The notes: generated by a model from the sequence alone, not told the origin. A DNA stretch of 64,000 nucleotides from Candidatus Cloacimonadota bacterium (GCA_029553545.1 JAKPKU010000001.1:5639-69638), one strand, 5' to 3'. Numbered from the stretch's first letter, positions 6,301 through 54,558 are shown. A program made the numbers and translations.

Positions 6301-6658
6301 TATATCGAGAGGATCGAAAAGCGATCTCAAATCACATCTTTTTCTATCTTTCAAAAGTTCGTAATAAATCTCCTTTTTATTCCCTTTTGATTCCTATAGA
6401 AATACCTTTCATTCTCCAAGATAGCAAAGGGAATGTAAGAGGAGTCGTGTAGGTATATTATAGATAAATAGCCTTATACATTAATAAATGAAAAATGAGC
6501 AAAAAGCTGGAAAATCAGGACCAGATTACAGAGATATTTGTTCTTTTATGACACTGTTTTCTTTTCAATAAGATCATTTTTAAACAGAGATTTTTAGTAG
6601 ATTATTTTTATTTATCGTGCAATAACTTCATACAGTAAAAAAACAGCTAAAATAGCAT
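6301..6658 (-). repeat. conserved intergenic element, copy 1 (minus orientation, co-oriented with potABC)
   Basis: The 30-nt core CATTCCCTTTGCTATCTTGGAGAATGAAAG lies at 6435-6406 on the minus strand. Flanks align by eye to the copies at about 21900, 32625 and 46783. No reading frame is conserved across copies. Outer boundaries are approximate. Confidence 0.8.
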
Positions 6659-21899: not shown

Positions 21900-22235
21900 A
21901 TGCTATTTTACAAAATATCATTATACCTTTTTTAAAAAATTAGCCTGAAAATTGCTATATTTATTTACTAAAATAGACACGAAAATAAATCAAATAATCC
22001 CATTATCAGGTCAATTTTTCTCCATTTACATCTTTTATTTAATCATTGTTGTATATGACTATTTTTCAATTATATGTCTATATGATACCTCTTGCATTCC
22101 CCTTGCTATCTTGGAGAATGAAAGAGATTCTTATAGGAATTAAAAGGGAAGGGAAAGGAGATTTATTAATCATTTTTATGAGATAAATAGAAGGTGTTTT
22201 ATTGTCCATATTTTTAAGTAATGGTGATCGCTTAA
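21900..22235 (+). repeat. conserved intergenic element, copy 2 (upstream of the radical-SAM/SPASM-lon unit)
   Basis: Core at 22095-22124. Direct repeats TATATGACTAT (22052-22062) and TATATGTCTAT (22071-22081). The ORF-track ORF 21952..22143 runs through it, but its frame is not conserved in the other copies. Confidence 0.8.
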
Positions 22236-22405: not shown

Positions 22406-23422
22406 ATGTTTGAATATTTGCTAATGATTTTTAATTATATGTCGTTTAAGCGGGTTGTGAACCTAATTAAGGCATATTTATCATATTATATATCAATACT
22501 TATTGGCAGACCCTTTGTATGGGGCTATCCACCAATATTGATGATTGAGCCAACTAATATTTGTAATTTGAAATGCCCTCTCTGCCCTTCTGGTACAGGT
22601 CAGCTTAAGCGAGAGAAGGGGTATATGAATATTGCCACATTTGAGAGGGTGATAAATGAGATTTCGCCCTATACTTTCATGTTGATTATGTGGAATCAGG
22701 GGGAACCTTTTTTAAATAAAGACTTTATCCAGATGTGTAAGATTGCCAAGTCAAAGAAGATGCTTTTGCTTGTTTCTACAAATGCTAATGTTTTACCAAA
22801 TGCCAAAGAGATAGTTGAAGCGGGCATTGATAGATTGATAGTTTCTGCAGACGGAGCAAGCCAAGATACGTATAATATGTATCGAAGAAATGGAGTATTA
22901 CAGACAGTTGTAGATAATGTTGAGTCAATTATTAAAGCTAAAAAAGAGGCTAAAACCAGCTTGCCGAAGGTGATTTGGCAATTCATCGTCATGAAGCATA
23001 ATGAGCATGAAATAGAAGAAATTAAAGAAATTACACGTAAAATAGGCGTTGATAAACTTCAACTCAAAACTGTTCAGATATATGCTAAAGATGATATATA
23101 TACCTTCTTGCCAAATAACCCTAAGTACCGCCGTTACAAGATAACAGGTGATGATTTTGAACTTAAATATGGAATCAAAAATAGGTGTAGACGTATTTGG
23201 ACACAACCTGTTGTAAATTGGGATGGTGAAGTTGCTGTATGCTGCTTTGATAAAGATAATGACTTTAAGATCGGTAATATTCAACAGCAAAGCTTTAAAA
23301 ACTTATGGCATGGTAAAGAGTATAATAAATTTAGACGTCAGATTCTTAAAGATCGAGCTAAAATTGATATGTGTAAGAATTGTGGCGAAGGGGTATCATT
23401 AAAAATAAAGAACAAAGGGTGA
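22406..23422 (+). CDS. radical SAM protein with C-terminal SPASM/twitch-type Cys-rich domain and N-terminal TM helix
   Basis: CNLKCPLC (CxxxCxxC) follows an N-terminal hydrophobic helix. C-terminal cysteines CRRIW...VAVCCFD...CKNCGEG are typical of auxiliary 4Fe-4S SPASM domains. Confidence 0.75.
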   Translation: MFEYLLMIFNYMSFKRVVNLIKAYLSYYISILIGRPFVWGYPPILMIEPTNICNLKCPLCPSGTGQLKREKGYMNIATFERVINEISPYTFMLIMWNQGEPFLNKDFIQMCKIAKSKKMLLLVSTNANVLPNAKEIVEAGIDRLIVSADGASQDTYNMYRRNGVLQTVVDNVESIIKAKKEAKTSLPKVIWQFIVMKHNEHEIEEIKEITRKIGVDKLQLKTVQIYAKDDIYTFLPNNPKYRRYKITGDDFELKYGIKNRCRRIWTQPVVNWDGEVAVCCFDKDNDFKIGNIQQQSFKNLWHGKEYNKFRRQILKDRAKIDMCKNCGEGVSLKIKNKG

Positions 23423-31534: not shown

Positions 31535-32572
31535 TTAGTAGGGCTTAATTCTGGTCATTTGTTTTATGGTATCCAGATCAAGATATTTCCAAATTGAGGC
31601 GCCTGGTGTGTAACAAGTGTTCCAGCAACCCCTACATTCTTTTATCTCTTGTTTTCTCTCTTTCCATGCCTGGCTGCTGAATATCTCTTTGGCTGTCTGC
31701 TTTGCTAAGTTGCCAATGGGGTCACCGATGCATACTTTCACATCGCCATTGGGTTGGATAAAGAACTTGCTCCCTAAAACAGGGGAGTTGATGTAAGGGC
31801 AGATCTTTTTATAATTATTATTAAGATAGTCTTCATATCCTTTGTACAGCCAGATTGGCGTTTTCAGATAGGGTGACTTGATGATTCTTTTGATGATTTT
31901 ACTCAGCATCTCATTCTCAGTAACTTTCATGTCATCATTTTCACGGTGTGCCTTTGAAGTAAAGCGATAGATATCGATATTGAAGTTCCAACCGATAGAT
32001 TCAATATAGTCAAGAATATCAGGTATTTGTGCAAGATTCTTTTGAGAAATAACGATGTTTACTGATGTTTTAATAGGATTAGAGATCCTTTTGTTTTCAT
32101 CAATTATTTTTTGCATATTCTTCTGAACAGTATCCGAGACATTTTCTGCTTGCCTGATTTCATCAACAGTGCTGCCAAAGCCATCGAACGAACATGAAAT
32201 GGAGAGCTTGTGTCTAAACACAGTTTCGATAGTTTTATCGACTAATTCTTCTGGTCCATATAGAGTTGATAGCAAATGTACCCTTTTAAATTGTTTACTC
32301 TTGGCGTACTTAGCAAAGTCGTCAAGTTGTGGATGAAGCATTGGCTCCCCACCAGATAGAGTAATTCCTTGCGCTCCAGAGTTATCCAAACGATCAATCA
32401 CAGTATTAAAAACATCTTCGGTCATAAATGGTATCTCAGACTTCATAAAAGGAATATTACACTGCAAGCATCTTTGTGTACAGTGATAAGTAAGTAGTAT
32501 ATTATTCATGGTAAAGCTGGGGGTCCGTGTTGCAATGTTTTTAAGAATCTGTATATTTCTTTTTTTTATCAT
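31535..32572 (-). CDS. radical SAM protein with C-terminal SPASM/twitch-like Cys motif
   Basis: CTQRCLQC (CxxxCxxC), the GGEP motif (LSGGEPMLHP) and C-terminal cysteines CPYIN...VKVCIGD...CRGCWNTC. Confidence 0.75.
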   Translation of the reverse strand: MIKKRNIQILKNIATRTPSFTMNNILLTYHCTQRCLQCNIPFMKSEIPFMTEDVFNTVIDRLDNSGAQGITLSGGEPMLHPQLDDFAKYAKSKQFKRVHLLSTLYGPEELVDKTIETVFRHKLSISCSFDGFGSTVDEIRQAENVSDTVQKNMQKIIDENKRISNPIKTSVNIVISQKNLAQIPDILDYIESIGWNFNIDIYRFTSKAHRENDDMKVTENEMLSKIIKRIIKSPYLKTPIWLYKGYEDYLNNNYKKICPYINSPVLGSKFFIQPNGDVKVCIGDPIGNLAKQTAKEIFSSQAWKERKQEIKECRGCWNTCYTPGASIWKYLDLDTIKQMTRIKPY

Positions 32573-32624: not shown

Positions 32625-32866
32625 GAAAAAATTGCAGTATTCAAATAATACTTAACTAAAATAAAGTTGATTCCTGTTTTTTCTTTCTTTTTACTAATTT
32701 TTTAGATGAATATTGTATATGATTATTTAACAATAATATGTCTATGACATTCCCTTTACATTCCCCTTGCTATCTTGGAGAATGAAAGGTAGTTTTATAG
32801 GAATCTAAAGGGAATATAAAGAAGATCAATTGCTGATTTTTAAGAGTTGGGAAAGATCAGTCTTGT
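32625..32866 (+). repeat. conserved intergenic element, copy 3 (between the divergent radical SAM gene and trmB; co-oriented with trmB)
   Basis: Core at 32759-32788. Direct repeats TATATGATTAT (32716-32726) and AATATGTCTAT (32735-32745). The 5' arm is shorter than in the other copies. Confidence 0.8.
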
Positions 32867-34854: not shown

Positions 34855-35959
34855 ATGGATTTACAAGACTATATAAAAACATATGAAGATATATTAGATA
34901 GAATAAAAGACCTGTGGAGTTTTCTTTGACAAAGATAAACTTGCTAAAGAGCTGGAAGCCCTTGAAAGCCAAATGCATAGTGCCGACTTTTGGAATAATC
35001 AATCTAATGCGAAAAGAGTTACTCAACAAGTATCTATTTTAAAAGATGATCTTGAAGATAATAAAAAACTATATTCCATTGCAGAAGAGTTGACCACATA
35101 TGTGGATATCTTACAAGATGAGTGGAATAATGAGCTATTTAATGAAGCAGTAAGCTTCTTGCATGATGCAGTTGAATTTGTCGAGAAGCTTGAAGTAAAG
35201 CTCTTATTAAATGGAAAATACGATATGAATAATGCCATTTTAACAATTCATCCAGGCGCTGGCGGTACTGAATCACAGGACTGGGCAGAAATGCTTTTGA
35301 GAATGTTTAAACGCTGGGCAGAAAGGTCAAAATATGGGTTTAATATCGTTGACTTTCAGGCAGGTGATGAGGCAGGGGTAAAGAGTGCAACTGTTGAGAT
35401 TACTGGCGAGTTTGCTTATGGGTATTTAAAGGGCGAAGCAGGAGTTCATCGTTTGGTCAGGATTTCCCCTTTCAATGCACAAGGTAAAAGGCAAACATCT
35501 TTCACTTCTATCTATGTTTATCCTATGATAGATGACGATATTGAAGTTGAAATAAATCCTTCAGATCTTAAGGTGGACACATATCGCGCAAGCGGTGCAG
35601 GTGGACAACACGTAAACACAACAGATTCTGCTGTCAGAATAACACATATACCAACCAATATTATTGTTCAGTGCCAAAATGAACGTTCACAAATACAAAA
35701 CAGAGAAAAAGCAATGCAAATGCTTAAATCAAGACTCTTTCAACTTTATGAACAAGAAAGAGAAAAAGAAAGACAGAAAACTGAGTCATCCAAGACTGAG
35801 ATTGGCTGGGGTAATCAAATTCGCTCTTATGTCTTTGCTCCATATCAAATGGTCAAAGATCATAGAACCAACTATGAAACAGGAAATATTAGCCCCGTAA
35901 TGGATGGGGAAATAGATGAATTTATTAATGCTTTTTTAAAGTGGAATGCAGATAAATAG
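34855..35959 (+). CDS. prfB: peptide chain release factor 2, expressed through a programmed +1 frameshift
   Basis: Frame 0 (34855-34926) encodes MDLQDYIKTYEDILDRIKDLWSFL and ends at CTT TGA C. Skipping T34927 joins the frame of the ORF 34973..35959, which carries the SPF and GGQ (SGAGGQHVNTTDSAVR) motifs. Confidence 0.9.
34916..34930 (+). promoter_or_regulatory. RF2 autoregulatory +1 frameshift site
   Basis: GGAG (SD-like), TTTT, then CTT TGA C. This is the same architecture as the canonical prfB shift site (SD-like element, CUU UGA C). Confidence 0.85.
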
Positions 35960-35972
35960 ATGGATTGCAGTT

Positions 35973-36707
35973 ATGAATTATAAAGATTTAATAAAACAAC
36001 TTGATAAGAATTTACCCGATCATATTGGTGTTATTATGGACGGTAATGGTAGATGGGCAAAGAAACAGGGTGCAGGACGTCTGTGGGGACATAAAAACGG
36101 GGTAGAATCTGTCAGAGCATTAGTAGAAGCCTCTGTAGAAATTGGTCTAAAATACTTGACAATTTATGCCTTTTCAACAGAGAATTGGACAAGACCTGAT
36201 GATGAGGTAAAAGGGCTATTAAAACTTATATTAGATTCATTAATTAATGAAATTGACTCTATGAGTAAACAAAACATTGTCGTCAGATTTTTGGGTACAG
36301 ATATCGGTCTATCAAAAGAATATCAAAGTAAAATTAATAAAGAATGTCAAAAAACATATAATAACAATGGTTTAAACTTTAATATCGCTTTTAATTATGG
36401 GGGTAGGCTGGAATTGATTGAAGGTATTAGAAGCATTGCAACAAAGATCCAGAATAATACATTAACCATTAATCAAATCAATGAAGAGACTATTTCACAA
36501 GAACTTTATACTGCAAACATGCCAGATCCTGATCTGATTATTCGTACGAGTGGAGAAAAAAGACTATCAAATTTCTTAATATGGCAATCTGCTTATGCAG
36601 AGTTTTATTTTACAGACACGCTTTGGCCTGATTTTCGTAAAAGCGAATTTATCGAGGCAATTTTGGATTATCAAAAAAGACAGAGACGTTATGGAGGGAC
36701 AAAATGA
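35973..36707 (+). CDS. uppS: undecaprenyl diphosphate synthase (cis-prenyltransferase)
   Basis: HIGVIMDGNGRWAKKQG and RTSGEKRLSNFLIWQSAYAEFYF. The ATG at 35973 lies just after the prfB stop; the track start 35946 would overlap prfB. Confidence 0.9.
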   Translation: MNYKDLIKQLDKNLPDHIGVIMDGNGRWAKKQGAGRLWGHKNGVESVRALVEASVEIGLKYLTIYAFSTENWTRPDDEVKGLLKLILDSLINEIDSMSKQNIVVRFLGTDIGLSKEYQSKINKECQKTYNNNGLNFNIAFNYGGRLELIEGIRSIATKIQNNTLTINQINEETISQELYTANMPDPDLIIRTSGEKRLSNFLIWQSAYAEFYFTDTLWPDFRKSEFIEAILDYQKRQRRYGGTK

Positions 36708-37495
36708 TTGAGCTAATAAAGAGGGTTTTAATATCAGTCATAGCTATACCACTATTGTTATTTATCTATTATTACGGTCAGATTCCACTAATCATATTTC
36801 TTATTCTTTTGAGCTTAATTAGCTCTTATGAGTTGTCTAAAATGTTAAAAAATAAGTCACTCTATCTTATGGCTTCAGTTATACCTTTCACTGCACTAAT
36901 GTGCTATATGTCTGCAAAATATGACTTGGAATACTCGCTCTACTTATTGTTTTTTGCATTAGCTTTATTTGGTGCAGAAGAAATATTTAGAAATAGAATA
37001 GAAAATGCCATCTATAGAGTAAGCTCTTCTTTAATGATAATGGTTTACTGCGGGGTAAGCCTGGGCTTTGTATATCGCCTTCATGGCTTAAAAAACGGTA
37101 ATTACTTGCTACCATTCATAGCAATCCTCATTTGGATAACAGATACATTTGCTTACTTTATTGGAGTATGGTTAGGTAGACATCGTAATATCTTTAATGT
37201 TAGCCCCAAAAAGTCAATTGAAGGATTTATTGGTGGTTTTGTCTTTGCTGTTTTGTTTGCTATAATTGCTCATTTCATTGTTCCAAACAAAATAAGCCTA
37301 TTTTGGGCTCTTCTCATGGGTATTGTTATAGGTACAATTGGGCAGTTTGGAGACCTATTTGAATCACTGCTCAAGCGTGACTGTGGGGTAAAAGATAGCT
37401 CAAACCTAATACCAGGACATGGAGGTATTTTAGATAGGTTTGATAGCTTTATGATAGCTGTTCCCGTTATTTATATCCTTTACAGTGTATTATAG
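36704..37495 (+). CDS. cdsA: phosphatidate cytidylyltransferase (CDP-diglyceride synthase)
   Basis: Polytopic membrane protein with the C-terminal signature SLLKRDCGVKDSSNLIPGHGGILDRFDS. Confidence 0.9.
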   Translation: MIELIKRVLISVIAIPLLLFIYYYGQIPLIIFLILLSLISSYELSKMLKNKSLYLMASVIPFTALMCYMSAKYDLEYSLYLLFFALALFGAEEIFRNRIENAIYRVSSSLMIMVYCGVSLGFVYRLHGLKNGNYLLPFIAILIWITDTFAYFIGVWLGRHRNIFNVSPKKSIEGFIGGFVFAVLFAIIAHFIVPNKISLFWALLMGIVIGTIGQFGDLFESLLKRDCGVKDSSNLIPGHGGILDRFDSFMIAVPVIYILYSVL

Positions 37496-44709: not shown

Positions 44710-46524
44710 TTATTTCATTAAGATAGCTTTTCTAACTTCAGAATGATTATCTGATTGTAACCTATAAAAATAAATACCAGAAGGCATATTATTATTATTA
44801 TCATCTTTACCATTCCAATTTACTGTATGATTACCTGCTGCTACGTATTCGTTGATTAATGTTCTTACTTTTTGTCCTTTTGAATTGAAAACAGCGATAT
44901 TAACATTATTTGCTTTGCTGATTTGGAAAGCAATTGTTGTGTTTGGATTTAATGGGTTTGGATAATTGCCCTGAAGCATCTTTGTTTTGCTGATTACTTC
45001 TGTTTCTGTAGCAACCCATGCAAAGTCAGACAACATACGACTTCCAACAAATCTGCCATCTACTCTTTCATGTGGGATACATGCCATTGTTATTGTTCCT
45101 GTTGGAATTGCTGTATCGATATAGTCTGCATCATAAAAAGATGTACGGAAGTTTGCATTACCTGTTCCATCAGTTATTACATAAGATGTGCCAGTTGCAA
45201 ACTCTCCTGATGCATTTACAAAAGATAGACCACTGATAGCTACAAGTCGAGATTCATATGTATCGAAGTTTGCATTTAATTCTTGTATTGTAACAGGTAC
45301 AGCGGTAATTGGATTATTTGTTGAGCTTGGTGCAGTTATATTCGCAACAGGAACGAATTGCAACATGCCATTAAATTCTTCTATTTTACCTGATAAACCA
45401 GTGATACCGTCTCCAATGTTGAAATTAGTTGTGATTACATTTGAATAGTCGTCAATTAATAAACCAGCATTGGCATCTTGTACAAATATTTGATTTCTAA
45501 AGCTTTGTGTGTAGCTAACATATACTTCACCTATTACAGTATAAATTGTTGTTCCATCCGCATTTTGTTGTTTCAACTCGCTCAAGTTCGCAACAGAAGC
45601 AGTAAATGAATATGTGGCGCTAACTGTATTGCTTGGTGTGTAGCCATCTTTAAATGCTTTAGCTTTCAATGTTGTTGTTTGTGATAAATTGATTGGGTTT
45701 TGATACAATGTTGAGGACTGGCTTGGCTCGTCACCATTAGTTGTATAGTAAATTAAAGCGCCTTCTGTTGGACAAAAAATACTAACATTTATAGTTGAGC
45801 CATATACTCCACCTGCAGGATCAAAAGAAGGAGTTAAAACTACTGTACCAGCTGTACTTGCAAAAGTTAAGTTGTCATAGCGATAAGTTCCGCCAGTTGC
45901 ATATGAACCAGTTGGGTTTGCAGGACCATAAGCATTTGTGCCAAATTCAAATGAAGATACAATTTTAATTCCAAAGTTAGGGTTATTATTTGCTTCTGGA
46001 ATTGATGCAAAACTTGCTTTGCGATAAAACCAAGTCGCACCTGCATCTATGATATATAAGCCATTATCGAAACCTGAATCGTTATTTGTGACAGTATTAG
46101 TGTTGAATGCATTTGTTGAATTTGCGATAAAATCGTTCCAATTTACACCATCCAAAGTATATTGTACACACATACGACTTGATGCAGTGTTGCTATTTCT
46201 TTGATGCCAGGTGATTTCAATGTTTTCTTTACCAACAGTCGAGACCATTGCTTGAATTCCTGCTGTTTTATTGCCAGTACCTTGAGCAGGGTAACCTGTT
46301 GTTTGAAGCGCTAAGCCGCCTGTACCTGTTCCTGTAAAACCTGTGATAAACTCATAAGAGATTCCACCTAATGTTGTAAGAGTGCCTGTTCCGCTTGCTG
46401 GGTTAAGATTGCTTGCTTCGAAATCCCATTGTGTAAAACTTGTTTGTGCAAACATTAAACTTACAGATAACATAATAACCAACATAAGAGTAATGTTTTT
46501 GATTCTTGAAATATTTACGTTCAT
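44710..46524 (-). CDS. secreted surface protein with T9SS (Por) C-terminal sorting domain
   Basis: Signal peptide after the ATG at 46524, which has GGAGGA 5 nt upstream (the track GTG at 46536 lies inside the RBS). It has a chitobiase/hexosaminidase-C-like Ig domain (IYYTTNGDEPSQSS...KAKAF) and an OB-like module. The C-terminal roughly 80 aa (YPNPLNPNTTIAFQ...SGIYFYRLQSDNHSEVRKAILMK) is typical of T9SS type A CTDs. Confidence 0.7.
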   Translation of the reverse strand: MNVNISRIKNITLMLVIMLSVSLMFAQTSFTQWDFEASNLNPASGTGTLTTLGGISYEFITGFTGTGTGGLALQTTGYPAQGTGNKTAGIQAMVSTVGKENIEITWHQRNSNTASSRMCVQYTLDGVNWNDFIANSTNAFNTNTVTNNDSGFDNGLYIIDAGATWFYRKASFASIPEANNNPNFGIKIVSSFEFGTNAYGPANPTGSYATGGTYRYDNLTFASTAGTVVLTPSFDPAGGVYGSTINVSIFCPTEGALIYYTTNGDEPSQSSTLYQNPINLSQTTTLKAKAFKDGYTPSNTVSATYSFTASVANLSELKQQNADGTTIYTVIGEVYVSYTQSFRNQIFVQDANAGLLIDDYSNVITTNFNIGDGITGLSGKIEEFNGMLQFVPVANITAPSSTNNPITAVPVTIQELNANFDTYESRLVAISGLSFVNASGEFATGTSYVITDGTGNANFRTSFYDADYIDTAIPTGTITMACIPHERVDGRFVGSRMLSDFAWVATETEVISKTKMLQGNYPNPLNPNTTIAFQISKANNVNIAVFNSKGQKVRTLINEYVAAGNHTVNWNGKDDNNNNMPSGIYFYRLQSDNHSEVRKAILMK

Positions 46525-46782
46525 AACTTCCTCCACTTTCCATATTTATTACCAATTTAATAAACATTCAAAATAATGCAAGATCTTTTTTAAATAATAG
46601 CATAAATTTTTTTATTCTTTCAAATAGTGCATGTTCGACTCTTTTATAATGCAGGTGATTGATACCAAAAAACTAATCTATGATAGGAAAAAATACAGAA
46701 CCTTTTAAGAGAAAAGAAGAAAAATAGTGTTTTGCATGTAATGAACAGCGATTTTTTATAATATAAAACCATAATAATCATC

Positions 46783-47145
46783 GTGATATTTTACGATCAA
46801 TGAATGGAAAATTGAACCGTACACAAAACAATTTATAAAAAAGAGAGCTTGAAAATTACTTTTTTTCTACTTTTATATCATCTCAAAAACTTACAAAATT
46901 CCCTTTAATTAACCCAGATTTTCTCTCATTTCACTAATTTTCTATTAATAAGTGTATATGTCTATTTTTCAAATATATGTCTATATGAATCCCCTTACAT
47001 TCCCCTTGCTATCTTGGAGAATGAAAGGTAATTTAAAAGGAATCTAAAGGGAATGCAAAGGAGGTTTATTATGAATTTTATGAGAGAGAAAAACAATGTG
47101 TCTTATTATTGTTTTTTTAAGTCATAAAGATAAGTCGCAGGTGAG
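46783..47145 (+). repeat. conserved intergenic element, copy 4 (upstream of the isoprenoid ether-lipid operon)
   Basis: Core at 46998-47027. Perfect 11-bp direct repeat TATATGTCTAT at 46955-46965 and 46974-46984. GGGAATG (47049-47055) is perfectly complementary to CATTCCC. AAAGGAGG (47057-47064) is followed by an ATG at 47071 that only this copy has. Confidence 0.8.
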
Positions 47146-47342: not shown

Positions 47343-48233
47343 ATGATACTACCAAAATACTTTGATGATCGAGCTAAGATGCTGGATAGAGTGCTTGATC
47401 AGTATTTAACCCCAGAAACAGAAGAGCCCAAGGATTTGTATGCAGCCATGAGATACTCTGTATTTAGTGGAGGCAAGAGATTAAGACCTATTCTATTTTA
47501 TGCAACTTATGAGATGCTGGTAAAAAAAGCAACTGAACATCAAATGGAACAAGCATCATTAATCGCAGCAGCTCTTGAAATGGTGCATACAGCGTCTTTG
47601 ATTCATGATGATTTGCCTTCAGTTGATAATTCTGATGAGCGAAGAGGTAAGGAGTCATGTCATGTCAAGTTTGGTTCTGCGACTGCTATCTTGGCTGGTG
47701 ATGCTCTATTGACAAAAGCTTTTGAAATGATTACCAAACTGGAAGATCCACGAAAAGCTGTACACTGTATTAGAGTCTTGTGCAATTTAGTGTCTACTCA
47801 AGGGATGATAGGCGGGCAAACAGTAGATATTATCTCATCATCCAAACAAAATATCCCTATTACTGTTATCAAATATGTACACTTAAAAAAGACAGGAGCA
47901 TTACTTGAAGCGGCTTCTCATCTTGCTTGCGTTATGGCAGATGCAGATGAGAATACCACAAATAATATGGTGAATTATGCACAGAATTTAGGTCTTGCAT
48001 ATCAGATAATTGACGACATTTTGGATGATATTGGTGACTTTGAAATGCTTGGTAAAGAGCCTTATGAAGATGCTCGTAATTTCAAATCTACATACCCTTC
48101 TATATTAGGGCTTGATAAAGCAAGACAAACCGCTGAGAAACTCATAAGTGATTCAAGCAAATTGATTAAAAACTTGCCTAATAATCATATATTAATAGAA
48201 TTCGTAAAAATGATAAAGGATAGACTGCCATAA
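47343..48233 (+). CDS. trans-polyprenyl diphosphate synthase, predicted geranylgeranyl diphosphate synthase
   Basis: FARM DDLPSVDNSDERRG and SARM DDILDD. A small residue (Ala) sits 5 positions before the FARM (HTASLIHDD). The ATG at 47343 is preceded by AGGAG. The track extension back to 47160 translates AT-rich intergenic sequence. Confidence 0.8.
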   Translation: MILPKYFDDRAKMLDRVLDQYLTPETEEPKDLYAAMRYSVFSGGKRLRPILFYATYEMLVKKATEHQMEQASLIAAALEMVHTASLIHDDLPSVDNSDERRGKESCHVKFGSATAILAGDALLTKAFEMITKLEDPRKAVHCIRVLCNLVSTQGMIGGQTVDIISSSKQNIPITVIKYVHLKKTGALLEAASHLACVMADADENTTNNMVNYAQNLGLAYQIIDDILDDIGDFEMLGKEPYEDARNFKSTYPSILGLDKARQTAEKLISDSSKLIKNLPNNHILIEFVKMIKDRLP

Positions 48234-48237
48234 GATA

Positions 48238-49107
48238 ATGACCTCGATTGAAAGATATAAAATATTAAATGCTGTAAAATCTACACGTATTATTAGACCA
48301 CTAAACTGCATCTTTAGTTTCATTTGTGTGCTATTTGGAACCTATTACTCAGGTGGACTAAACATTAGAATAGAGACCTTCTTAATAGCTTTGTCTGCTA
48401 CATTAATAGCTGGAGCAGGGTATGTGGTTAATGATATTTTTGATTTGGAAATTGATAAAATAAATCAACCTCAAAGAGTTTTACCGCAAGGACTGCTTAA
48501 TATTAAACAAGCAAGCATAATTACCTTTATTTTATTGACTATAGGGCTACTTTTAAGCCTGAGTAGTGATAGTGTATGGCATTTGCTTATCGCTACTATA
48601 AATGCACTACTATTACTGTTTTATGCTATATATTTTAAAAAGATAGGTTTGATAGGTAATTTGGTCGTAGCATGGACAGCTGCTTCAACTTTTCTCTATG
48701 GGGCATTATTAACAAATAGTATTAAAAAAGTATTGCCTATTATGATATTAGCTTTTTTATACACGCTCATTAGAGAATGGACAAAGACCATTGAAGACTA
48801 TGAAGGCGATAAAAGCCAGAATGCTAAAACTGTCGCTATTATGCTTGGTAAAGCGAAAACAGTGTGGTTACTTTTTGTTCCTGCTATTTTGTTATTAGTC
48901 TTTATCTTTGTGTTTTACAGAATGAATATCACCAATCCCTTTGAGTTTTTATGGCTAAATATACTTGTGGTAGTGCCATTAGCTCTATTTTTAATAATAT
49001 TACTTCGTTCGCAGAATAAGATTATCGTAAAGACTGTTCACAAATGGATGAAGATAGATATGTTAATTCTATTGTTAATTTATGTTGTATCTTATTTATT
49101 AGACTGA
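48238..49107 (+). CDS. UbiA-superfamily prenyltransferase, digeranylgeranylglyceryl phosphate synthase-like
   Basis: About 8-9 TM helices, with the Asp-rich motifs NDIFDLEIDKINQPQR and EDYEGD. It lies between the polyprenyl synthase and the GGGPS-family gene. Confidence 0.7.
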   Translation: MTSIERYKILNAVKSTRIIRPLNCIFSFICVLFGTYYSGGLNIRIETFLIALSATLIAGAGYVVNDIFDLEIDKINQPQRVLPQGLLNIKQASIITFILLTIGLLLSLSSDSVWHLLIATINALLLLFYAIYFKKIGLIGNLVVAWTAASTFLYGALLTNSIKKVLPIMILAFLYTLIREWTKTIEDYEGDKSQNAKTVAIMLGKAKTVWLLFVPAILLLVFIFVFYRMNITNPFEFLWLNILVVVPLALFLIILLRSQNKIIVKTVHKWMKIDMLILLLIYVVSYLLD

Positions 49108-49122
49108 ATTTAGGTGGATAAT

Positions 49123-49875
49123 ATGAAAACAGAAATATATTTAAAGCTATTAGAAATGAGAAAAAAGCATCCTTGTTTGTTTTGTCTTATTGATCCAGAT
49201 AAAAATGATATTTTGACCAATGTTCGCCTTGCTGAGATATACGAAAAATGCAATGCTGATGCAATTCTAATTGGTGGTAGTATCATGATTGAAGATAATT
49301 ATGAAGAGACTATTTTGCAGATCAAGAAATCTGTAAAGATACCTGTGATTATCTTTCCTGGACTGTTTAACTTTGTAAGCGGTTATGCTGATGCTATTTT
49401 ATTATTGAATATGCTAAGTAGTCGAAATCCTCAAGTGTTGATTGAAGAACAAGTGAGATGTGCTCCTCAGCTTTACCATACAGGGTTGGAGAGCATTCCA
49501 ACAGGTTATATTTTGATTGAGTCGGGCAATCTCTCTTCTGTTCAGTATATGAGCCACAGTTTACCTATACCACGAAAGAAAAATGATATTGCTCTCATTC
49601 ATGCTCTGGCAGGTCAATATATGGGTATGAAGATGATTTATTTGGAAGCGGGAAGTGGTGCTAAAGAAGCAATTCCCAATGAGATGATAAAATATGTTGC
49701 AAATAAGCTGGATATCCCATTAATAGTGGGTGGAGGGATAAGAACCGCTGAGTCTGCAAAAGAAAAAGCTGATGCAGGAGCTGATTTTATAGTAATTGGA
49801 ACAGTACTTGAAGAATTAGATAACTATACTCTTGTTAAAGATATTGCTGATGCTATACATAGTGTTCAAAAATAG
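49123..49875 (+). CDS. geranylgeranylglyceryl phosphate synthase family protein (PcrB/GGGPS TIM barrel)
   Basis: DAILIGGS, IIFPG, YLEAGSGA and PLIVGGGIRT...GADFIVIGT are characteristic of the PcrB/GGGPS family. The ATG at 49123 lies 5 nt after GGTGG. Confidence 0.8.
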   Translation: MKTEIYLKLLEMRKKHPCLFCLIDPDKNDILTNVRLAEIYEKCNADAILIGGSIMIEDNYEETILQIKKSVKIPVIIFPGLFNFVSGYADAILLLNMLSSRNPQVLIEEQVRCAPQLYHTGLESIPTGYILIESGNLSSVQYMSHSLPIPRKKNDIALIHALAGQYMGMKMIYLEAGSGAKEAIPNEMIKYVANKLDIPLIVGGGIRTAESAKEKADAGADFIVIGTVLEELDNYTLVKDIADAIHSVQK

Positions 49876-50682
49876 ATGGATGGAGAAACTATGATTGATA
49901 TTCACAACCATATTTTACCCGGTCTTGATGATGGATCAAAAGATATTAATACTACAATCAATTATTTACAATTAGTTCAGGCTTCAGGGGTTAAAAAGCT
50001 TGTCTTTACACCTCACTATATGCCTGGTTTTTATGATAGTACGAGAGAAAAGGTCTCTGCTATCTTTAAACAAATAATAGACTTAAAGACTGTGCATGCC
50101 CCTGATGTAGAATTTTATCATTCTGCTGAAGTATATTTAAATGGAGAAAACATAGTCAATGATATTATTAAAGAAAATTTCTTTATAAATAACTCACAGT
50201 ATGTCTTAGTTGAAAATAACTTAAATGGCTTTACAGAAGATTTGTATCAATTGCTTTACCAAATGAACCGAAAGGGCATGAGACCTATCTTGGCACATCC
50301 AGAGCGCTATATGGAGATTAAGAATGATCCCAGTAGGGCTGATGACTTTTTGCAAAGAGATGTGTATTTACAAATCAATACGGGTAGTATTTTAGGAGGG
50401 TATGGACAACAAGTACAAAATGCTGCCTTTGAGCTGATAGATAGAGGATGGGCTCACTTTTTGGGTTCAGATTGTCACTGTCGCTCAGGCGTTTATGATT
50501 ATCCTCAAGCAGTTGAAGTAATACGCAATGAATTTGATGACAAAATCGCTACACTTTTGTCATCTACGTTCCCCGAGAGAATGCTTAAAAATGAGATAAT
50601 CCCGCACTTTTACATGGTGAAAAAAACAATACCCAAGAAGAAAAGCTTTTTGGAAAAAGTGCTTGATTTCTTTGGAGAGTAA
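49876..50682 (+). CDS. PHP-family metal-dependent phosphatase (CpsB/YwqE-like)
   Basis: MIDIHNHILPGLDDGS, FTPHY, LAHPERY and GSDCH motifs. It starts immediately after the stop of the GGGPS gene. Confidence 0.75.
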   Translation: MDGETMIDIHNHILPGLDDGSKDINTTINYLQLVQASGVKKLVFTPHYMPGFYDSTREKVSAIFKQIIDLKTVHAPDVEFYHSAEVYLNGENIVNDIIKENFFINNSQYVLVENNLNGFTEDLYQLLYQMNRKGMRPILAHPERYMEIKNDPSRADDFLQRDVYLQINTGSILGGYGQQVQNAAFELIDRGWAHFLGSDCHCRSGVYDYPQAVEVIRNEFDDKIATLLSSTFPERMLKNEIIPHFYMVKKTIPKKKSFLEKVLDFFGE

Positions 50683-51660
50683 TTGGAAACACTATTAATC
50701 ACAGGTATTACGGGGTTTATCGGTAAAAGCGTTGCCAGATTATTGGTTGGAAATTATCAAATAACAGCTTTAATACGACCCAATACAGATAAAAAGAGAT
50801 ATCAAGAATTTGCTAATAAGATAGAGTTTGTTGAGCTTGATTTGACTGATACTCGAGGGCTTAGAGAATACTTATTCAAAAAGTCTTTTAAATATATCTT
50901 ACATATTGGAGCACTAAGGGGTGGTAGAAAGTTTACTAAAGAAGATTACTTGAAAGCAAATGTGTATGCTACAGAGCAGTTGGTATTACATGCTGTGAAA
51001 CATCAGTCAAAGATGATATTTTGCTCGTCTGTTGGCGTCTTTGGAGCAATTCCAATTGAGTTGCCTGCCAATAATTTGAGCCCCAAACAAGAAGATAATT
51101 ATTATCACTTCACCAAAATTAAAAGTGAGGCTATTATTCAAAAATATGTGCTTGAAAAAGGATTGAATGCATGTATACTCAGACCAGCAATTACATATGG
51201 GGGAGAGGATTATGGCTTTCCATTTACCTTGATGAAACTAATTAAAAAGAAGCTTTTGTTTTATCCAAAACGGACTATAAGAATACATATGACTCATATA
51301 GATTTGATTAGTGAAGCTTTTGTTAGAGTTCTAAAAAATGAGTTTAAACCAGGCAGTCAATGGAATGTGGCTGATGATAAACCCGTGATTTTCGATGAAT
51401 TAGTACAGTTTATCTCTATTAAGATTAATCAACGACTATATCCTGCAAATAGGAGAATCGATAAGGGTTGGTTTGAGCTTGGTGAGCGCATTAGCCGTTT
51501 TTTTAAAAGCGAATTATGGGTAAGTAGATTTGAGCTTATTTCCAAAAGCTGGTACTACGATGTAGAGGCTACTTATCGCGATTTAAACTTGAAGAAGGCT
51601 ACAACAGTGCCAGGATTTAAAAAGTCAATAGACTGGTATATGAAAAGAGAAAAAAGATAG
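50683..51660 (+). CDS. NAD-dependent epimerase/dehydratase (extended SDR)
   Basis: Rossmann motif LITGITGFIG and catalytic YxxxK (YHFTKIK). The start codon is TTG, directly abutting the upstream stop. Confidence 0.7.
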   Translation: METLLITGITGFIGKSVARLLVGNYQITALIRPNTDKKRYQEFANKIEFVELDLTDTRGLREYLFKKSFKYILHIGALRGGRKFTKEDYLKANVYATEQLVLHAVKHQSKMIFCSSVGVFGAIPIELPANNLSPKQEDNYYHFTKIKSEAIIQKYVLEKGLNACILRPAITYGGEDYGFPFTLMKLIKKKLLFYPKRTIRIHMTHIDLISEAFVRVLKNEFKPGSQWNVADDKPVIFDELVQFISIKINQRLYPANRRIDKGWFELGERISRFFKSELWVSRFELISKSWYYDVEATYRDLNLKKATTVPGFKKSIDWYMKREKR

Positions 51661-52503
51661 ATGGCAATACCAATTTTACACTTTTGGGATAAGTATTATA
51701 CTAATCCAGACGAAGGATTGGGGTCAACTTATGAACGCTTTATTATCAATAGGATACTCTATAAGGCTGTGAAGCACTTTCAAATAAAGACAGTTCTCGA
51801 AGCGCCCTCTTTTGGGTTTACAGGTATGAGTGGGATTAATAGTATGGGACTGGCTTTGAAGGGCTGTGAAGTGAGTCTATTAGATCATGATATGAATAGA
51901 CTTGATAATATCAAATCAACATGGAAGACGCTAAACTTGCCTCTCAGAGCTGAATATGTTGATGATTATAGTCGTTTGAATTTTGCAGATAAGAGCTTTG
52001 ATATGTCATGGAATTTCTCAGCATTATGGTTTGTAAAAGACTTGCAAATGTTCTTATCAGAACTAGATCGAGTGACAAAGAGAGTAATATTAATCATGGT
52101 TCCCAATCAAGCTGGATTGGGCTATGTTCAACAGCGCTACTTTGGCCAAGAAGACCTGAAAAAGTATTTGATTGAGTCGCATATCAGACCCAAAACAATA
52201 AAAGCTGAGATGGAAAAACTCAACTGGAAACTGCTTCATCACGAACTATTAGATTGCCCCTTGTGGCCCGATATAGGAATGTCGAAAGAAGACTTTTTAA
52301 AGAAGTTAGGGATTGGTGCCTTTTCTTTTAAAAAGGACGACAATAAAGTTGAGAAGAGACCAATAACTATACTGGATTATTACTCTGGTAGAAACTCGGA
52401 TATGCCTGGTCAATTTGAGAAGTATGAACTGTTTGAAAAGCATGCACCAGAATCATTTAAGAGATTTTGGGCTCATCATCAATACTTACTCTTTATTCGA
52501 TAA
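51661..52503 (+). CDS. methyltransferase-like protein with divergent motif I
   Basis: VLEAPSFGFTGMSG...VSLLDHD...FDMSWNFSALWFV resembles a class I methyltransferase fold, but motif I is atypical. It directly abuts the upstream gene. Confidence 0.35.
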   Translation: MAIPILHFWDKYYTNPDEGLGSTYERFIINRILYKAVKHFQIKTVLEAPSFGFTGMSGINSMGLALKGCEVSLLDHDMNRLDNIKSTWKTLNLPLRAEYVDDYSRLNFADKSFDMSWNFSALWFVKDLQMFLSELDRVTKRVILIMVPNQAGLGYVQQRYFGQEDLKKYLIESHIRPKTIKAEMEKLNWKLLHHELLDCPLWPDIGMSKEDFLKKLGIGAFSFKKDDNKVEKRPITILDYYSGRNSDMPGQFEKYELFEKHAPESFKRFWAHHQYLLFIR

Positions 52504-52513
52504 ATAAAAGGCT

Positions 52514-53542
52514 ATGAAAAAGAAGAATTATATAAAGCTGGCTGTAGGTGTGCTAACTGGCATTGCGCTTCTGTTATTTTGGTTTAAATGGGTCAATTTT
52601 GATGAGCTTGTAAGTTATCTAAAACAAGTGAATGTTTATTTAGCAAGCCTTGCCTTTGTGATATATGTATTATCCTATTTTATAAGAGCTTATCGTTGGA
52701 AGATACTACTCTCAACCAATGCAAAAATAAGCCAAAGAGATAGCTTTTTATACCTGATGGCAGGTAACTTTATTAATTACCTGATACCTATTAGAGCTGG
52801 AGAAGTAGCAAAGTGCCTCTTTTTGAAAGAAAATCATGAGATTGAGTTCTCTAAAGGCTTTTCTTCCGTTTTTTTAGATAAACTATTCGATACACTGGGC
52901 ATCTTTGTGGTATTAACTCTATTGTTCTTTTTGCCAATTCAATTAAACTCGTATTTATTAAGCTTGATAGGATTTTTACTGATTATATTTATGCTTGGAG
53001 CTCTGATCTTAGTATTTGCTGCGATTAGAAAAGACAACGTAGTGAAGAGTTTGCAAAAGATATTCTTCTTTTTACCACTGAGATTTCGTTTGAAGATAGA
53101 CGAGTTCATCTTGAACTTTATTGAAGGGATAGCTATATTTAGGAACCATTTAAGTTTACTATTTCCAGCAGTTGCCTTGACTCTTGGTGCAGTCTTTTGT
53201 GACAGTTTATTCTTTTGGTTACTGTTTAAATCGTTTGCACAAAGCATAAGTTTTACTTATGTTTTATTTGGTTATACACTAATCTATTTGAGTTATATTT
53301 TACCACACCCACCAGCTCAGATAGGCTCAAATGAGCTGATTATGGTGTTGATTTTTTCAATAGGCTTTGGACTCAATAAAGAAATGGTGAGCGCTGTAAT
53401 GGCTTTTTCGCACATAATAACAGGTATTATTGTTATCACTGTAGGGATAGTTGGATTGAACTATGCAGGGATGAAATTTTTTGATTTTATAAATAATGGA
53501 GATAAAGATGACACAACCACAAAACAATATGGAACTACTTGA
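52514..53542 (+). CDS. UPF0104/TIGR00374 flippase-like membrane protein (LPG-synthase TM-region family)
   Basis: About 8 TM helices, with the family-typical YFIRAYRWKILL motif after TM2. Confidence 0.65.
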   Translation: MKKKNYIKLAVGVLTGIALLLFWFKWVNFDELVSYLKQVNVYLASLAFVIYVLSYFIRAYRWKILLSTNAKISQRDSFLYLMAGNFINYLIPIRAGEVAKCLFLKENHEIEFSKGFSSVFLDKLFDTLGIFVVLTLLFFLPIQLNSYLLSLIGFLLIIFMLGALILVFAAIRKDNVVKSLQKIFFFLPLRFRLKIDEFILNFIEGIAIFRNHLSLLFPAVALTLGAVFCDSLFFWLLFKSFAQSISFTYVLFGYTLIYLSYILPHPPAQIGSNELIMVLIFSIGFGLNKEMVSAVMAFSHIITGIIVITVGIVGLNYAGMKFFDFINNGDKDDTTTKQYGTT

Positions 53543-54503
53543 TAATCTACAAAATACGAAAGACCAGATTATCAGTGAATTACATAAGGTAATTATCGGT
53601 CAAGATAAAGTAATTGAACAGATAATGATAGCCTTATTTGCTAATGGTCATTGTTTGATTGAAGGGGTGCCAGGTTTGGCTAAGACTCTGATGATATCAA
53701 CATTGGCAAAGATCTTACAATTGAAATTTAGCCGTATTCAATTTACACCAGATTTGATGCCCTCAGATATCACTGGTACTGAGGTTTTAACAGAAAATAA
53801 GAGTGATGGTACAAAGTACTTCCAATTCATCAAGGGACCTATATTTGCTAATTTAATTTTGGCAGATGAGATAAATAGAACGCCACCAAAGACACAGTCA
53901 GCACTATTGCAAGCAATGCAAGAGTTTCAAGTGAGTGTAGGCAATACCACATTTCCACTTAGCTCACCTTTTTTAGTAATTGCTACTCAAAACCCAATTG
54001 AGCAAGAAGGTACTTATCCTTTACCAGAAGCTCAATTAGATAGATTTATGTTGAATATTATAATTGATTATCCAAACTTTGAAGAAGAAAAAGAAATAGT
54101 ACTGAGTACAACAAGTAAGCAAGTCAATGAACCACAGGCAATTATTACACAAGAATCAATTTTAGGTATTCAATCTGCCATCTATGATATACCTGTCAGT
54201 GAGCATGTTTTATCTTATGCAGTTCGCCTTGTGAGAGCTACCAGACCTAATGAGATAGATTCTCCAGAATACATTAAAAGGTGGGTGAATTGGGGTGCAG
54301 GTCCAAGAGCATCGCAGTATTTGGTTCAAGCAGCAAAGATATTTGCAGCATTAAAAGGCAGATTGTCGCCATCTATTGATGATATTAGGGCTGTTGCTGA
54401 TATAGTTTTGAGGCATAGAGTATTAGTTTCATATGCAGCAGAGGCAGATGGCTTTAAATCAAGCCAAATCATAGAAAAACTATTAAAAGAGACTATTAAT
54501 TAA
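53508..54503 (+). CDS. MoxR-family AAA+ ATPase
   Basis: VIIGQD...LIEGVPGLAKT Walker A, ADEINRTPPKTQSALLQAMQE Walker B/sensor region, and ATQNPIEQEGTYPLPEAQLDRF. The ATG at 53508 is preceded by GGAGA; the track start is 53496. Confidence 0.85.
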   Translation: MTQPQNNMELLDNLQNTKDQIISELHKVIIGQDKVIEQIMIALFANGHCLIEGVPGLAKTLMISTLAKILQLKFSRIQFTPDLMPSDITGTEVLTENKSDGTKYFQFIKGPIFANLILADEINRTPPKTQSALLQAMQEFQVSVGNTTFPLSSPFLVIATQNPIEQEGTYPLPEAQLDRFMLNIIIDYPNFEEEKEIVLSTTSKQVNEPQAIITQESILGIQSAIYDIPVSEHVLSYAVRLVRATRPNEIDSPEYIKRWVNWGAGPRASQYLVQAAKIFAALKGRLSPSIDDIRAVADIVLRHRVLVSYAAEADGFKSSQIIEKLLKETIN

Positions 54504-54530: not shown

Positions 54531-54558
54531 TTGACAGAAAGAATTAATTATATATTAT
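54531..54558 (+). promoter_or_regulatory. putative sigma70-type promoter of purA
   Basis: TTGACA (54531-54536), a 16-nt spacer and TATTAT (54553-54558). Confidence 0.4.

Follow-up and report, generated by a model that had tools for sequence, protein, structure and literature searches.

A putative archaeal-type ether-lipid core cluster at the head of a conserved eight-gene block in a Candidatus Cloacimonadota genome

A stretch of DNA of 64,000 nucleotides from a Candidatus Cloacimonadota bacterium (GCA_029553545.1, JAKPKU010000001.1:5639-69638; hereafter the window) carries, at positions 47343-49875, three open reading frames (ORFs), all on the plus strand, that resemble the core genes of archaeal-type isoprenoid ether-lipid synthesis. 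The first (47343..48233, 296 amino acids) encodes a short-chain trans-prenyl diphosphate synthase of the IspA/CrtE type (Pfam polyprenyl_synt, E = 9.5e-57). The second (48238..49107, 289 amino acids) encodes a UbiA-family prenyltransferase (PF01040, E = 1.9e-34) similar to digeranylgeranylglyceryl phosphate synthase (DGGGPS), which would form the second ether bond. The third, ending at 49875, encodes a TIM barrel of the PcrB family (PF01884, E = 6.7e-43), a group-II geranylgeranylglyceryl phosphate synthase (GGGPS) and the candidate for the first ether bond. The first two genes are separated by 4 nt, and the third begins either at an ATG at 49123, 15 nt after the second gene and preceded by AGGTGG, or at a GTG at 49114, 6 nt after it; the ATG is probably the start. 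The original prediction, made from the sequence alone, had described a tight operon with gaps of 4 and 15 nt. The coordinates bear out the spacing and the operon, while the end proposed for it, 49875, is too short, as five further genes follow on the same strand.

The motifs quoted for the first gene were all located. The first Asp-rich motif (FARM), DDLPSVDNSDERRG, lies at residue 89 (nt 47607) and includes a two-residue insertion, and the second (SARM), DDILDD, at residue 224 (nt 48012). In the FARM context HTASLIHDD, Ala occupies position -5 and Ser position -4, where Escherichia coli IspA (reference sequence taken from NC_000913) has Tyr-Ser in HAYSLIHDD; the Ala-Ser pair is also present in six of six aligned relatives. 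From this small pair only, the product of the first gene would be geranylgeranyl diphosphate (GGPP). The closest structures are those of cyanobacterial and plant short-chain synthases, which were deposited under the names of both farnesyl diphosphate (FPP) synthase and GGPP synthase (GGPPS), and the archaeal type-I GGPPS model NF041003 scores 164 bits (cut-off 500).

The second protein carries its Asp-rich motifs at nt 48430-48465 (NDIFDLEIDKIN) and nt 48796-48810 (DYEGD); in the alignment with the Methanocaldococcus jannaschii DGGGPS, NDIFDLEIDKIN falls on NDIFDIEIDRIN and EDYEGD on EDMEGD. In NCBIfam, models for DGGGPS or archaeal prenyltransferases take the first five places (171 to 84 bits); the DGGGPS models score 171, 164 and 123 bits and those of ChlG, EboC, UbiA and MenA 78, 62, 45 and 23.5 bits, respectively. 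The only strong match in the PDB is 6M31, the M. jannaschii DGGGPS (121 bits, E = 6.7e-34), aligned end to end over residues 17-285, as against 47 bits (3e-11) for chlorophyll synthase; the NCBIfam and PDB searches gave no match to haem O synthase. The protein thus does not fall among the quinone or haem prenyltransferases, and the conversion of geranylgeranylglyceryl phosphate (GGGP) and GGPP to digeranylgeranylglyceryl phosphate (DGGGP) would be its predicted reaction. The family and both motifs stand as predicted; against the nine transmembrane segments once assigned to the protein, a crude hydropathy scan gave seven strong segments.

All three motifs reported for the third protein are present, namely YLEAGSGA (nt 49639-49662, residue 176), GGGIRT (nt 49729-49746, residue 206) and ADFIVIGT (nt 49780-49803, residue 223), and its glycerol-phosphate-binding elements (Y-L-E, the GGG loop and G-T) line up with their counterparts in the GGGPS structures 4JEJ and 4MM1. 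The cut-offs of the GGGP equivalog TIGR01769 (205 bits, cut-off 161.55) and of the mixed subfamily NF003198 (285 bits, cut-off 247) are passed, and the heptaprenylglyceryl phosphate synthase (HepGPS) model NF003197 gives 36.9 bits (cut-off 260). Among solved structures, the GGGPS of Flavobacterium johnsoniae (4JEJ) and Methanothermobacter (4MM1) score 188 and 170 bits, and 6NKE and 6JO3 150 and 141 bits, whereas the PcrB of Bacillus subtilis and Geobacillus (3VZX/1VIZ), a heptaprenylglyceryl phosphate synthase, scores 31 bits. The protein was assigned to the group-II GGGPS because of this contrast of 188 and 170 against 31 bits, which also places it outside the Bacillus clade; the clade placement of all core proteins was made from such contrasts of Hidden Markov Model (HMM) and PDB scores. 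Its predicted reaction would be the formation of GGGP from GGPP and glycerol-1-phosphate (G1P). The F. johnsoniae enzyme is the closest solved structure (E = 1.3e-54), with identical IYLEAGSGAK and GGGI motifs. It differs in its setting: at 33 Flavobacterium-type loci the GGGPS gene stands alone, and the 8 kb around it hold no homologue of the seven other proteins of the block described below or of the oxidoreductase found upstream of it in relatives, whereas the window gene sits in an operon.

The five genes that follow on the plus strand extend the block to position 54503. They encode a CpsB/YwqE-like metal-dependent phosphoesterase of the PHP family (49876..50682; Pfam CpsB_CapC 6.2e-47; PDB YwqE 3QY6, E = 8.9e-30), an extended short-chain dehydrogenase/reductase (SDR) with the NAD-dependent epimerase/dehydratase fold (50683..51660; Pfam Epimerase 4.8e-26), a class-I S-adenosylmethionine (SAM) methyltransferase (51661..52503; Pfam Methyltransf_11 1.6e-7; no NCBIfam family), a polytopic membrane protein of the LPG_synthase_TM or 'flippase-like' family related to AglD, MprF and HpnL (52514..53542; Pfam 7.4e-45; TIGR00374 113 bits, cut-off 43.2) and, as the last gene of the block, a MoxR-type AAA+ ATPase (53496..54503), the orthologue of which in relatives carries the bpMoxR/AAA_3/AAA_5 domains. 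The start of the phosphoesterase gene abuts the GGGPS stop, and the junctions between phosphoesterase and SDR and between SDR and methyltransferase are likewise of 0 nt; a gap of 10 nt separates the methyltransferase from the membrane protein gene, which overlaps the MoxR gene by 47 nt. The purA gene follows after 106 nt, with a promoter-like site at 54531-54558 before it. A sigma-70 promoter and terminator scan gave 55 sites against 38 expected in this AT-rich DNA, and does not define the ends of the operon because it is barely above background.

Four relatives (GGGPS identity 54-68%) share all eight genes and their order, while their flanking genes differ. To cover the phylum, a scan of GTDB with one genome per species was performed with the methyltransferase as the probe; it yielded 185 loci, 80 of which, almost all from Cloacimonadota, were kept. 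The architectures were read by tblastn of the window proteins against these 80 loci, 46 of which have enough flanking sequence to be informative. The full block is present in 23 of the 46. Eight others have the GGPPS followed by the phosphoesterase, SDR, methyltransferase, LPG_synthase_TM and MoxR genes, with neither DGGGPS nor GGGPS nearby; six have GGGPS, phosphoesterase, SDR, methyltransferase and MoxR, with or without the membrane protein; and six have the SDR and methyltransferase alone. Over all 80 loci, the SDR adjoins the methyltransferase in 79, the LPG_synthase_TM protein follows the methyltransferase in 63, the phosphoesterase follows GGGPS or GGPPS in 62, and MoxR is 59-85% identical and collinear in 57. 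The five downstream genes are thus a conserved module linked to isoprenoid-lipid genes in the phylum, and the truncated architectures indicate that this module is not strictly dependent on a neighbouring GGGPS or DGGGPS.

An oxidoreductase of the GFO/IDH/MocA family lies directly upstream of the operon in relatives (L001, 7120-8151; L002, 7190-8227; L004, 7234-8271). It is found at 17 of the 23 loci with the full block, only where DGGGPS is present, and is absent from the window, where its position corresponds to a 766-bp intergenic region with a repeat element. It is close to the PDB entries 3Q2K and 3Q2I (E = 2.5e-106), named there only 'oxidoreductase' or 'dehydrogenase', which we take to be the UDP-sugar 3-dehydrogenases WlbA/WbpB. 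The oxidoreductase was considered as the missing G1P dehydrogenase and rejected, being a close homologue of these two proteins and lacking a gene in the window.

The SDR and the methyltransferase are invariant partners. Alignment shows intact TGxxGxxG and YxxxK motifs in the SDR, and the invariant motifs EGLGS-YER, PSFGFTG-SGINS and DCP-WPDIGM in the methyltransferase. Both families are narrow: a search of 5.8 billion proteins gave 509 homologues of the methyltransferase and 436 of the SDR, and a methyltransferase profile retrieved 626 representatives at E <= 1e-3 from a library of 1.84 billion. The methyltransferase homologues are mostly from Cloacimonadota and at least 50% identical across the phylum. 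The SDR model (pLDDT 88.6) is closest in fold to Gox2253 (TM-score 0.80), with NDP-sugar epimerases and dehydratases next (about 0.7). The AlphaFold model of the methyltransferase, which is good (pLDDT 84), retrieved only generic class-I methyltransferases with Foldseek (TM-score about 0.5; TleD, FPP C6-methyltransferase, BioC and PEAMT), and its fold is therefore uninformative as to function. A role of the SDR as a dedicated reductase of G1P or alkyl-dihydroxyacetone phosphate is not supported, as the SDR-methyltransferase pair occurs without a local GGGPS and the SDR fold resembles that of NDP-sugar enzymes.

Natural fusions of the two proteins, with the SDR N-terminal and the methyltransferase C-terminal, show that they act together. 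At least six are present among the representatives, outside Cloacimonadota (P0367, P0389, P0404, P0424, P0434 and P0452), and one further protein (P0498) joins the methyltransferase to a family 2 glycosyltransferase (GT2). The fusion P0424, from an Actinomycetota metagenome-assembled genome (MAG; L171, 8001-9980), adjoins a GT2 gene and a SPASM-domain protein. In a Calditrichota MAG (L005/L019, 9032-18811), the pair occurs with a GT2, a double GT2, a PMT_2-type glycosyltransferase of the GT-C fold, a prenyl synthase, a Laminin_G-like protein and a UbiA enzyme; the short-chain prenyl synthase has Ala at -5 and the UbiA enzyme is unlike DGGGPS, and the cluster suggests a prenyl-lipid-linked glycosylation system. 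The SDR-methyltransferase unit might plausibly contribute to a modified sugar or head group carried by an isoprenoid lipid.

As predicted, the window encodes uppS (35946-36707, plus strand; TIGR00055 283 bits, above cut-off; NF011405 325 bits, cut-off 304) and a bacterial cdsA (36704-37495, plus strand), which overlap by 4 nt and lie about 10 kb upstream of the core genes. The latter has a CdsA-type C-terminal sequence, which the model NF008635 matches with 103 bits, short of its cut-off of 385, and it resembles CarS weakly (8.9e-6), as is to be expected. The anticipated local lack of a G1P dehydrogenase (Fe-ADH/G1PDH, EgsA/AraM) and of the CDP-archaeol synthase CarS was also found, among translations and family scans of window ORFs of at least 130-140 amino acids. 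The GC content of the operon (0.33-0.35) is the same as that of the rest of the window, and the cluster is flanked by typical bacterial genes (a protein with a type IX secretion system (T9SS) tail, the pyrophosphate-dependent phosphofructokinase gene, purA and cheA). Essentially all named homologues are from Candidatus Cloacimonadota MAGs, the best GGGPS match being 99% identical. Archaeal contamination is excluded by the uniform GC content, the bacterial flanking genes and the synteny across dozens of species.

Two further features of the surroundings were recorded. Genes for large secreted proteins that end in FlgD_ig/Por_Secre_tail (T9SS) domains are repeatedly found beside the lipid block (44710-46536, minus strand, in the window; loci L001, L002, L006 and L007) and interrupt it in a previously described Cloacimonetes scaffold, NIOZ-UU3 (L084), which may reflect only the abundance of such genes in the phylum. 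The release factor 2 ORF (34973-35959, 328 amino acids) starts inside the protein; such an internal start, typical of the programmed +1 frameshift of prfB, is unremarkable.

The conserved element that had been noted before the operon as a fourth copy is real. A repeat copy (46919..47110, plus strand) lies some 240 nt before the first gene and has a 30-nt core, CATTCCCCTTGCTATCTTGGAGAATGAAAG, at 46998-47027. The core occurs four times in the window, at 6406-6435 (minus strand), 22095, 32759 and 46998, where none is expected by chance; three of these cores are identical, and the one at 6406-6435 has a single mismatch. The enclosing repeat is about 160-190 nt long, with plus-strand copies at 22016-22176, 32680-32840 and 46919-47110, and a repeat search gave a family, D1, of three copies at 75-78% identity. 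Its sequence includes an inverted repeat, CATTCCC...GGGAATG, with AAAGGAG after it. Every copy is intergenic and oriented to a downstream operon, that of potA, of a radical SAM gene, of trmB and of the GGPPS gene, respectively. No Rfam family matched in the window, which leaves the element unclassified. For the four copies, RNAalifold predicts a weak fold (-14.5 kcal/mol) that shows little covariation; none of 87 related Cloacimonadota loci contains the exact core. Two radical SAM/SPASM-type proteins (22406-23422, plus strand; 31535-32572, minus strand) each adjoin a repeat copy; neither has an equivalog assignment, the best model, for a tungsten-cofactor maturase, being far under its cut-off. 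In a Black Sea study, homologues of the archaeal ring synthase GrsA were reported in 7 of 42 Cloacimonadota MAGs (PMC11868695).

The core cluster has a published precedent, as the original prediction had noted for Candidatus Cloacimonetes, the phylum to which the window itself belongs. Villanueva et al. (ISME J 15:168, 2020/21; PMC7852524) described GGGPS and DGGGPS co-localised in Candidatus Cloacimonetes (NIOZ-UU1-4), on a scaffold that also encodes a polyprenyl synthase and PriA. Their purified GGGPS formed GGGP from GGPP with G1P and also with glycerol-3-phosphate; phosphatidylglycerol-type (PG-) archaeol with eight unsaturations was produced in E. coli only upon co-expression of both synthases; the genes were transcribed in situ in the Black Sea; and PCR on environmental material confirmed the NIOZ-UU3 scaffold. 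In the Cloacimonetes MAGs, egsA/araM and carS were absent and homologues of geranylgeranyl reductase (GGR) present, CdsA and bacterial head-group enzymes were proposed as substitutes, and the idea of a mixed membrane was discussed (PMC7852524). The presence of cdsA, the lack of G1P dehydrogenase and CarS and the mixed membrane, which had been held to be still notable in the window, are therefore not new. Co-localisation of the synthases among bacteria was found to be restricted to this phylum (PMC7852524), with which the solitary GGGPS at our 33 Flavobacterium-type loci agrees.

The window and the NIOZ-UU cluster share the phylum, the order of prenyl synthase, DGGGPS and GGGPS, the absence of egsA/araM and carS, and the presence of a bacterial CdsA and other bacterial lipid genes. 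The protein identities to NIOZ-UU3 are 52% for the GGPPS, 41% for the DGGGPS (193 aligned residues, about two-thirds of the protein) and 59% for the GGGPS. The window represents another species, with the best GTDB representatives 67-69% identical in the methyltransferase and 76-81% in the GGGPS. In NIOZ-UU3 the order is PriA, GGPPS, DGGGPS, GGGPS, phosphoesterase, a T9SS-type gene on the opposite strand, SDR, methyltransferase and LPG_synthase_TM protein, whereas the five downstream genes are contiguous in the window. These downstream genes are not mentioned in the available portions of the text and supplements of that study (PMC7852524), and literature searches on them, on PDB entry 3WJ7 and on the LPG_synthase_TM family gave nothing that describes the block. 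The core cluster, which was published and tested in that study, is thus already known, and the extended conserved eight-gene block is the only new point.

Comparison with the canonical archaeal archaeol pathway shows the same three-step chemistry, the DGGGPS Asp-rich motifs, the GGGPS Y-x-E, GGG and G-T elements and a small residue before the FARM. The differences are that the archaeal pathway has the G1P dehydrogenase EgsA, CarS and GGR, none of which is in the window; that the first gene here is a bacterial type-II (IspA/CrtE-like) synthase with the two-residue FARM insertion, whereas the archaeal GGPPS is of type I; and that the Cloacimonadota host, unlike the hosts of the archaeal pathway, also has the full bacterial lipid machinery.

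We consider it likely, with a probability of roughly 80%, that the locus encodes the Cloacimonadota version of the core pathway for archaeal-type diether lipids, as the first part of an operon of eight genes (47343-54503). The reading of the three genes as making the archaeol backbone, with a GGPPS-type synthase, a GGGPS and a DGGGPS, agrees with the family scores, the structures and the synteny with NIOZ-UU3. In the proposed pathway, the first enzyme would elongate dimethylallyl and isopentenyl diphosphates (DMAPP/IPP) to a C15-C20 allylic diphosphate, the group-II GGGPS would move a geranylgeranyl group onto glycerol phosphate with formation of the first ether bond, and the DGGGPS-like UbiA enzyme would add a second geranylgeranyl group to give DGGGP. 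Activation and head-group attachment would be performed by ordinary bacterial enzymes, the CdsA encoded 10 kb upstream and those of the Pgs/Pss type, and the outcome would be unsaturated archaetidyl lipids next to the usual ester phospholipids. The GGGPS, DGGGPS and head-group steps were shown for the NIOZ-UU3 orthologues in vitro and in E. coli, and in the present species they are predicted from orthology, synteny and conserved motifs; a mixed membrane in Cloacimonadota is likewise a prediction.

Several observations weigh against this reading. The first protein passes the cut-off of the FPP synthase subfamily NF045485 (293 bits, cut-off 275) and does not reach that of the CrtE GGPPS model NF045685 (261 bits, cut-off 460), and its gene may simply be the organism's housekeeping equivalent of IspA. 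The second protein is under all the curated archaeal DGGGPS equivalog cut-offs (NF009521, 171 vs 296 bits; NF009522, 123 vs 353 bits), for which reason it is labelled DGGGPS-like, and it varies more than any other protein of the block (33-60% identity). A complete archaeal phospholipid pathway is not encoded within the 64-kb window, which has no G1P dehydrogenase, CarS or geranylgeranyl reductase. The published work includes no lipid analysis of any Cloacimonadota cell, and production in vivo is thus unproven (PMC7852524). A later pangenome study found the two synthases in only 24-30% of 46 Cloacimonadota genomes, which indicates that the ether-lipid trait is dispensable.

The alternative that survives best concerns the product rather than the core enzymes. 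The cluster could make a specialised envelope lipid, linked through an isoprenoid glycerol ether or a prenyl phosphate, and not the bulk phospholipid of a mixed membrane; we regard this as rather unlikely. In such a scheme, the phosphoesterase might dephosphorylate the lipid, the SDR and methyltransferase might decorate it, perhaps by adding a sugar or polyol that is modified or methylated, and the flippase-like protein might translocate it, by a tentative analogy with the product of the Bacillus PcrB. The latter enzyme shares the TIM-barrel family with the GGGPS of the window but belongs to group I and makes a product of another chain length. Its product is dephosphorylated and acetylated, i.e. 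capped, in the cell, and such processing of a prenyl-glycerol ether could parallel the phosphoesterase and methyltransferase genes found here. The zero-gap junctions from GGGPS through the methyltransferase, the retention of the block at 40-60% protein identity while the flanks change, and the position of the phosphoesterase directly after GGGPS or GGPPS are consistent with this alternative, as are the NDP-sugar enzyme-like fold of the SDR, the SDR-methyltransferase and methyltransferase-GT2 fusions, the GT2 gene beside the Actinomycetota fusion, and the Calditrichota pair with its GT2, PMT_2-type GT-C, prenyl synthase and other UbiA enzyme.

The LPG_synthase_TM family also recurs near isoprenoid-lipid genes, as in the hopanoid clusters, where HpnA, an SDR 'sugar epimerase', and HpnL, of the LPG_synthase_TM family, likewise place an SDR and a membrane protein beside such genes. 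The likeness is limited: the HpnA model scores 65 bits over the full length of the window SDR, far under its cut-off of 367, the membrane protein matches the general TIGR00374 only and not HpnL, and no squalene-hopene cyclase is present. Other evidence stands against an envelope-lipid product. The eight informative loci that retain the GGPPS-to-MoxR series with no DGGGPS or GGGPS nearby, together with the six that have the SDR and methyltransferase alone, show that the module works without local ether-lipid genes; the phosphoesterase is separated from the SDR by the opposite-strand gene in NIOZ-UU3; the operon has no glycosyltransferase; and the fold search with the methyltransferase was uninformative. 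The synteny comes essentially from one phylum, and shared ancestry therefore contributes to it. Moreover, E. coli made PG-archaeol with just the two synthases (PMC7852524).

It is very improbable that the PcrB homologue is instead a Bacillus-type HepGPS and that the UbiA protein belongs to the prenyltransferases of quinone, haem or chlorophyll synthesis, in which case no archaeol-type lipid would be made. The name of NF003198 does mix 'GGGPS/HepGPS' and the UbiA protein is under the DGGGPS equivalog cut-offs, but the GGGPS structures score 141-188 bits against 31 for PcrB, NF003197 is far from its cut-off (36.9 vs 260), DGGGPS outscores chlorophyll synthase by 121 to 47 bits with UbiA and MenA at 45 and 23.5 and haem O synthase unmatched, and the orthologues have GGGPS activity, measured directly, and DGGGPS activity, deduced from the PG-archaeol that E. 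coli formed only upon co-expression (PMC7852524). That the core genes are misbinned or misassembled archaeal DNA or a very recent horizontal acquisition, as might be supposed from the archaeal or Bacteroidetes origin of the closest characterised homologues of the second and third proteins, has a negligible probability and is refuted by the synteny across species, the same block occurring in dozens of Cloacimonadota species, including on Mb-scale contigs and complete chromosomes, to which the uniform GC content, the bacterial genes on both sides and the PCR-verified NIOZ-UU3 scaffold (PMC7852524) may be added.

The archaeal-type core pathway bears on the 'lipid divide', since it implies bacteria able to make both ester and archaeal-type ether lipids; its significance in this respect was set by the 2020/21 study (PMC7852524), and the window contributes a further Cloacimonadota species in which these core genes occur. 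What the present analysis contributes is the native unit, a block of eight genes, whereas reconstitution and interpretation have so far used the two synthases only. The five downstream genes, being strongly conserved and centred on the phylum, are candidates for the later fate of the lipids, such as head-group attachment, capping and flipping. It is a tentative and on balance doubtful proposal that they provide previously unrecognised later steps, in which the lipid would be dephosphorylated, decorated and translocated, of a bacterial isoprenoid-ether or prenyl-phosphate lipid pathway. If true, the 'archaeal' lipids of these bacteria would be tailored lipids of the envelope, bearing a new head group or cap, and not plain archaetidyl phospholipids.

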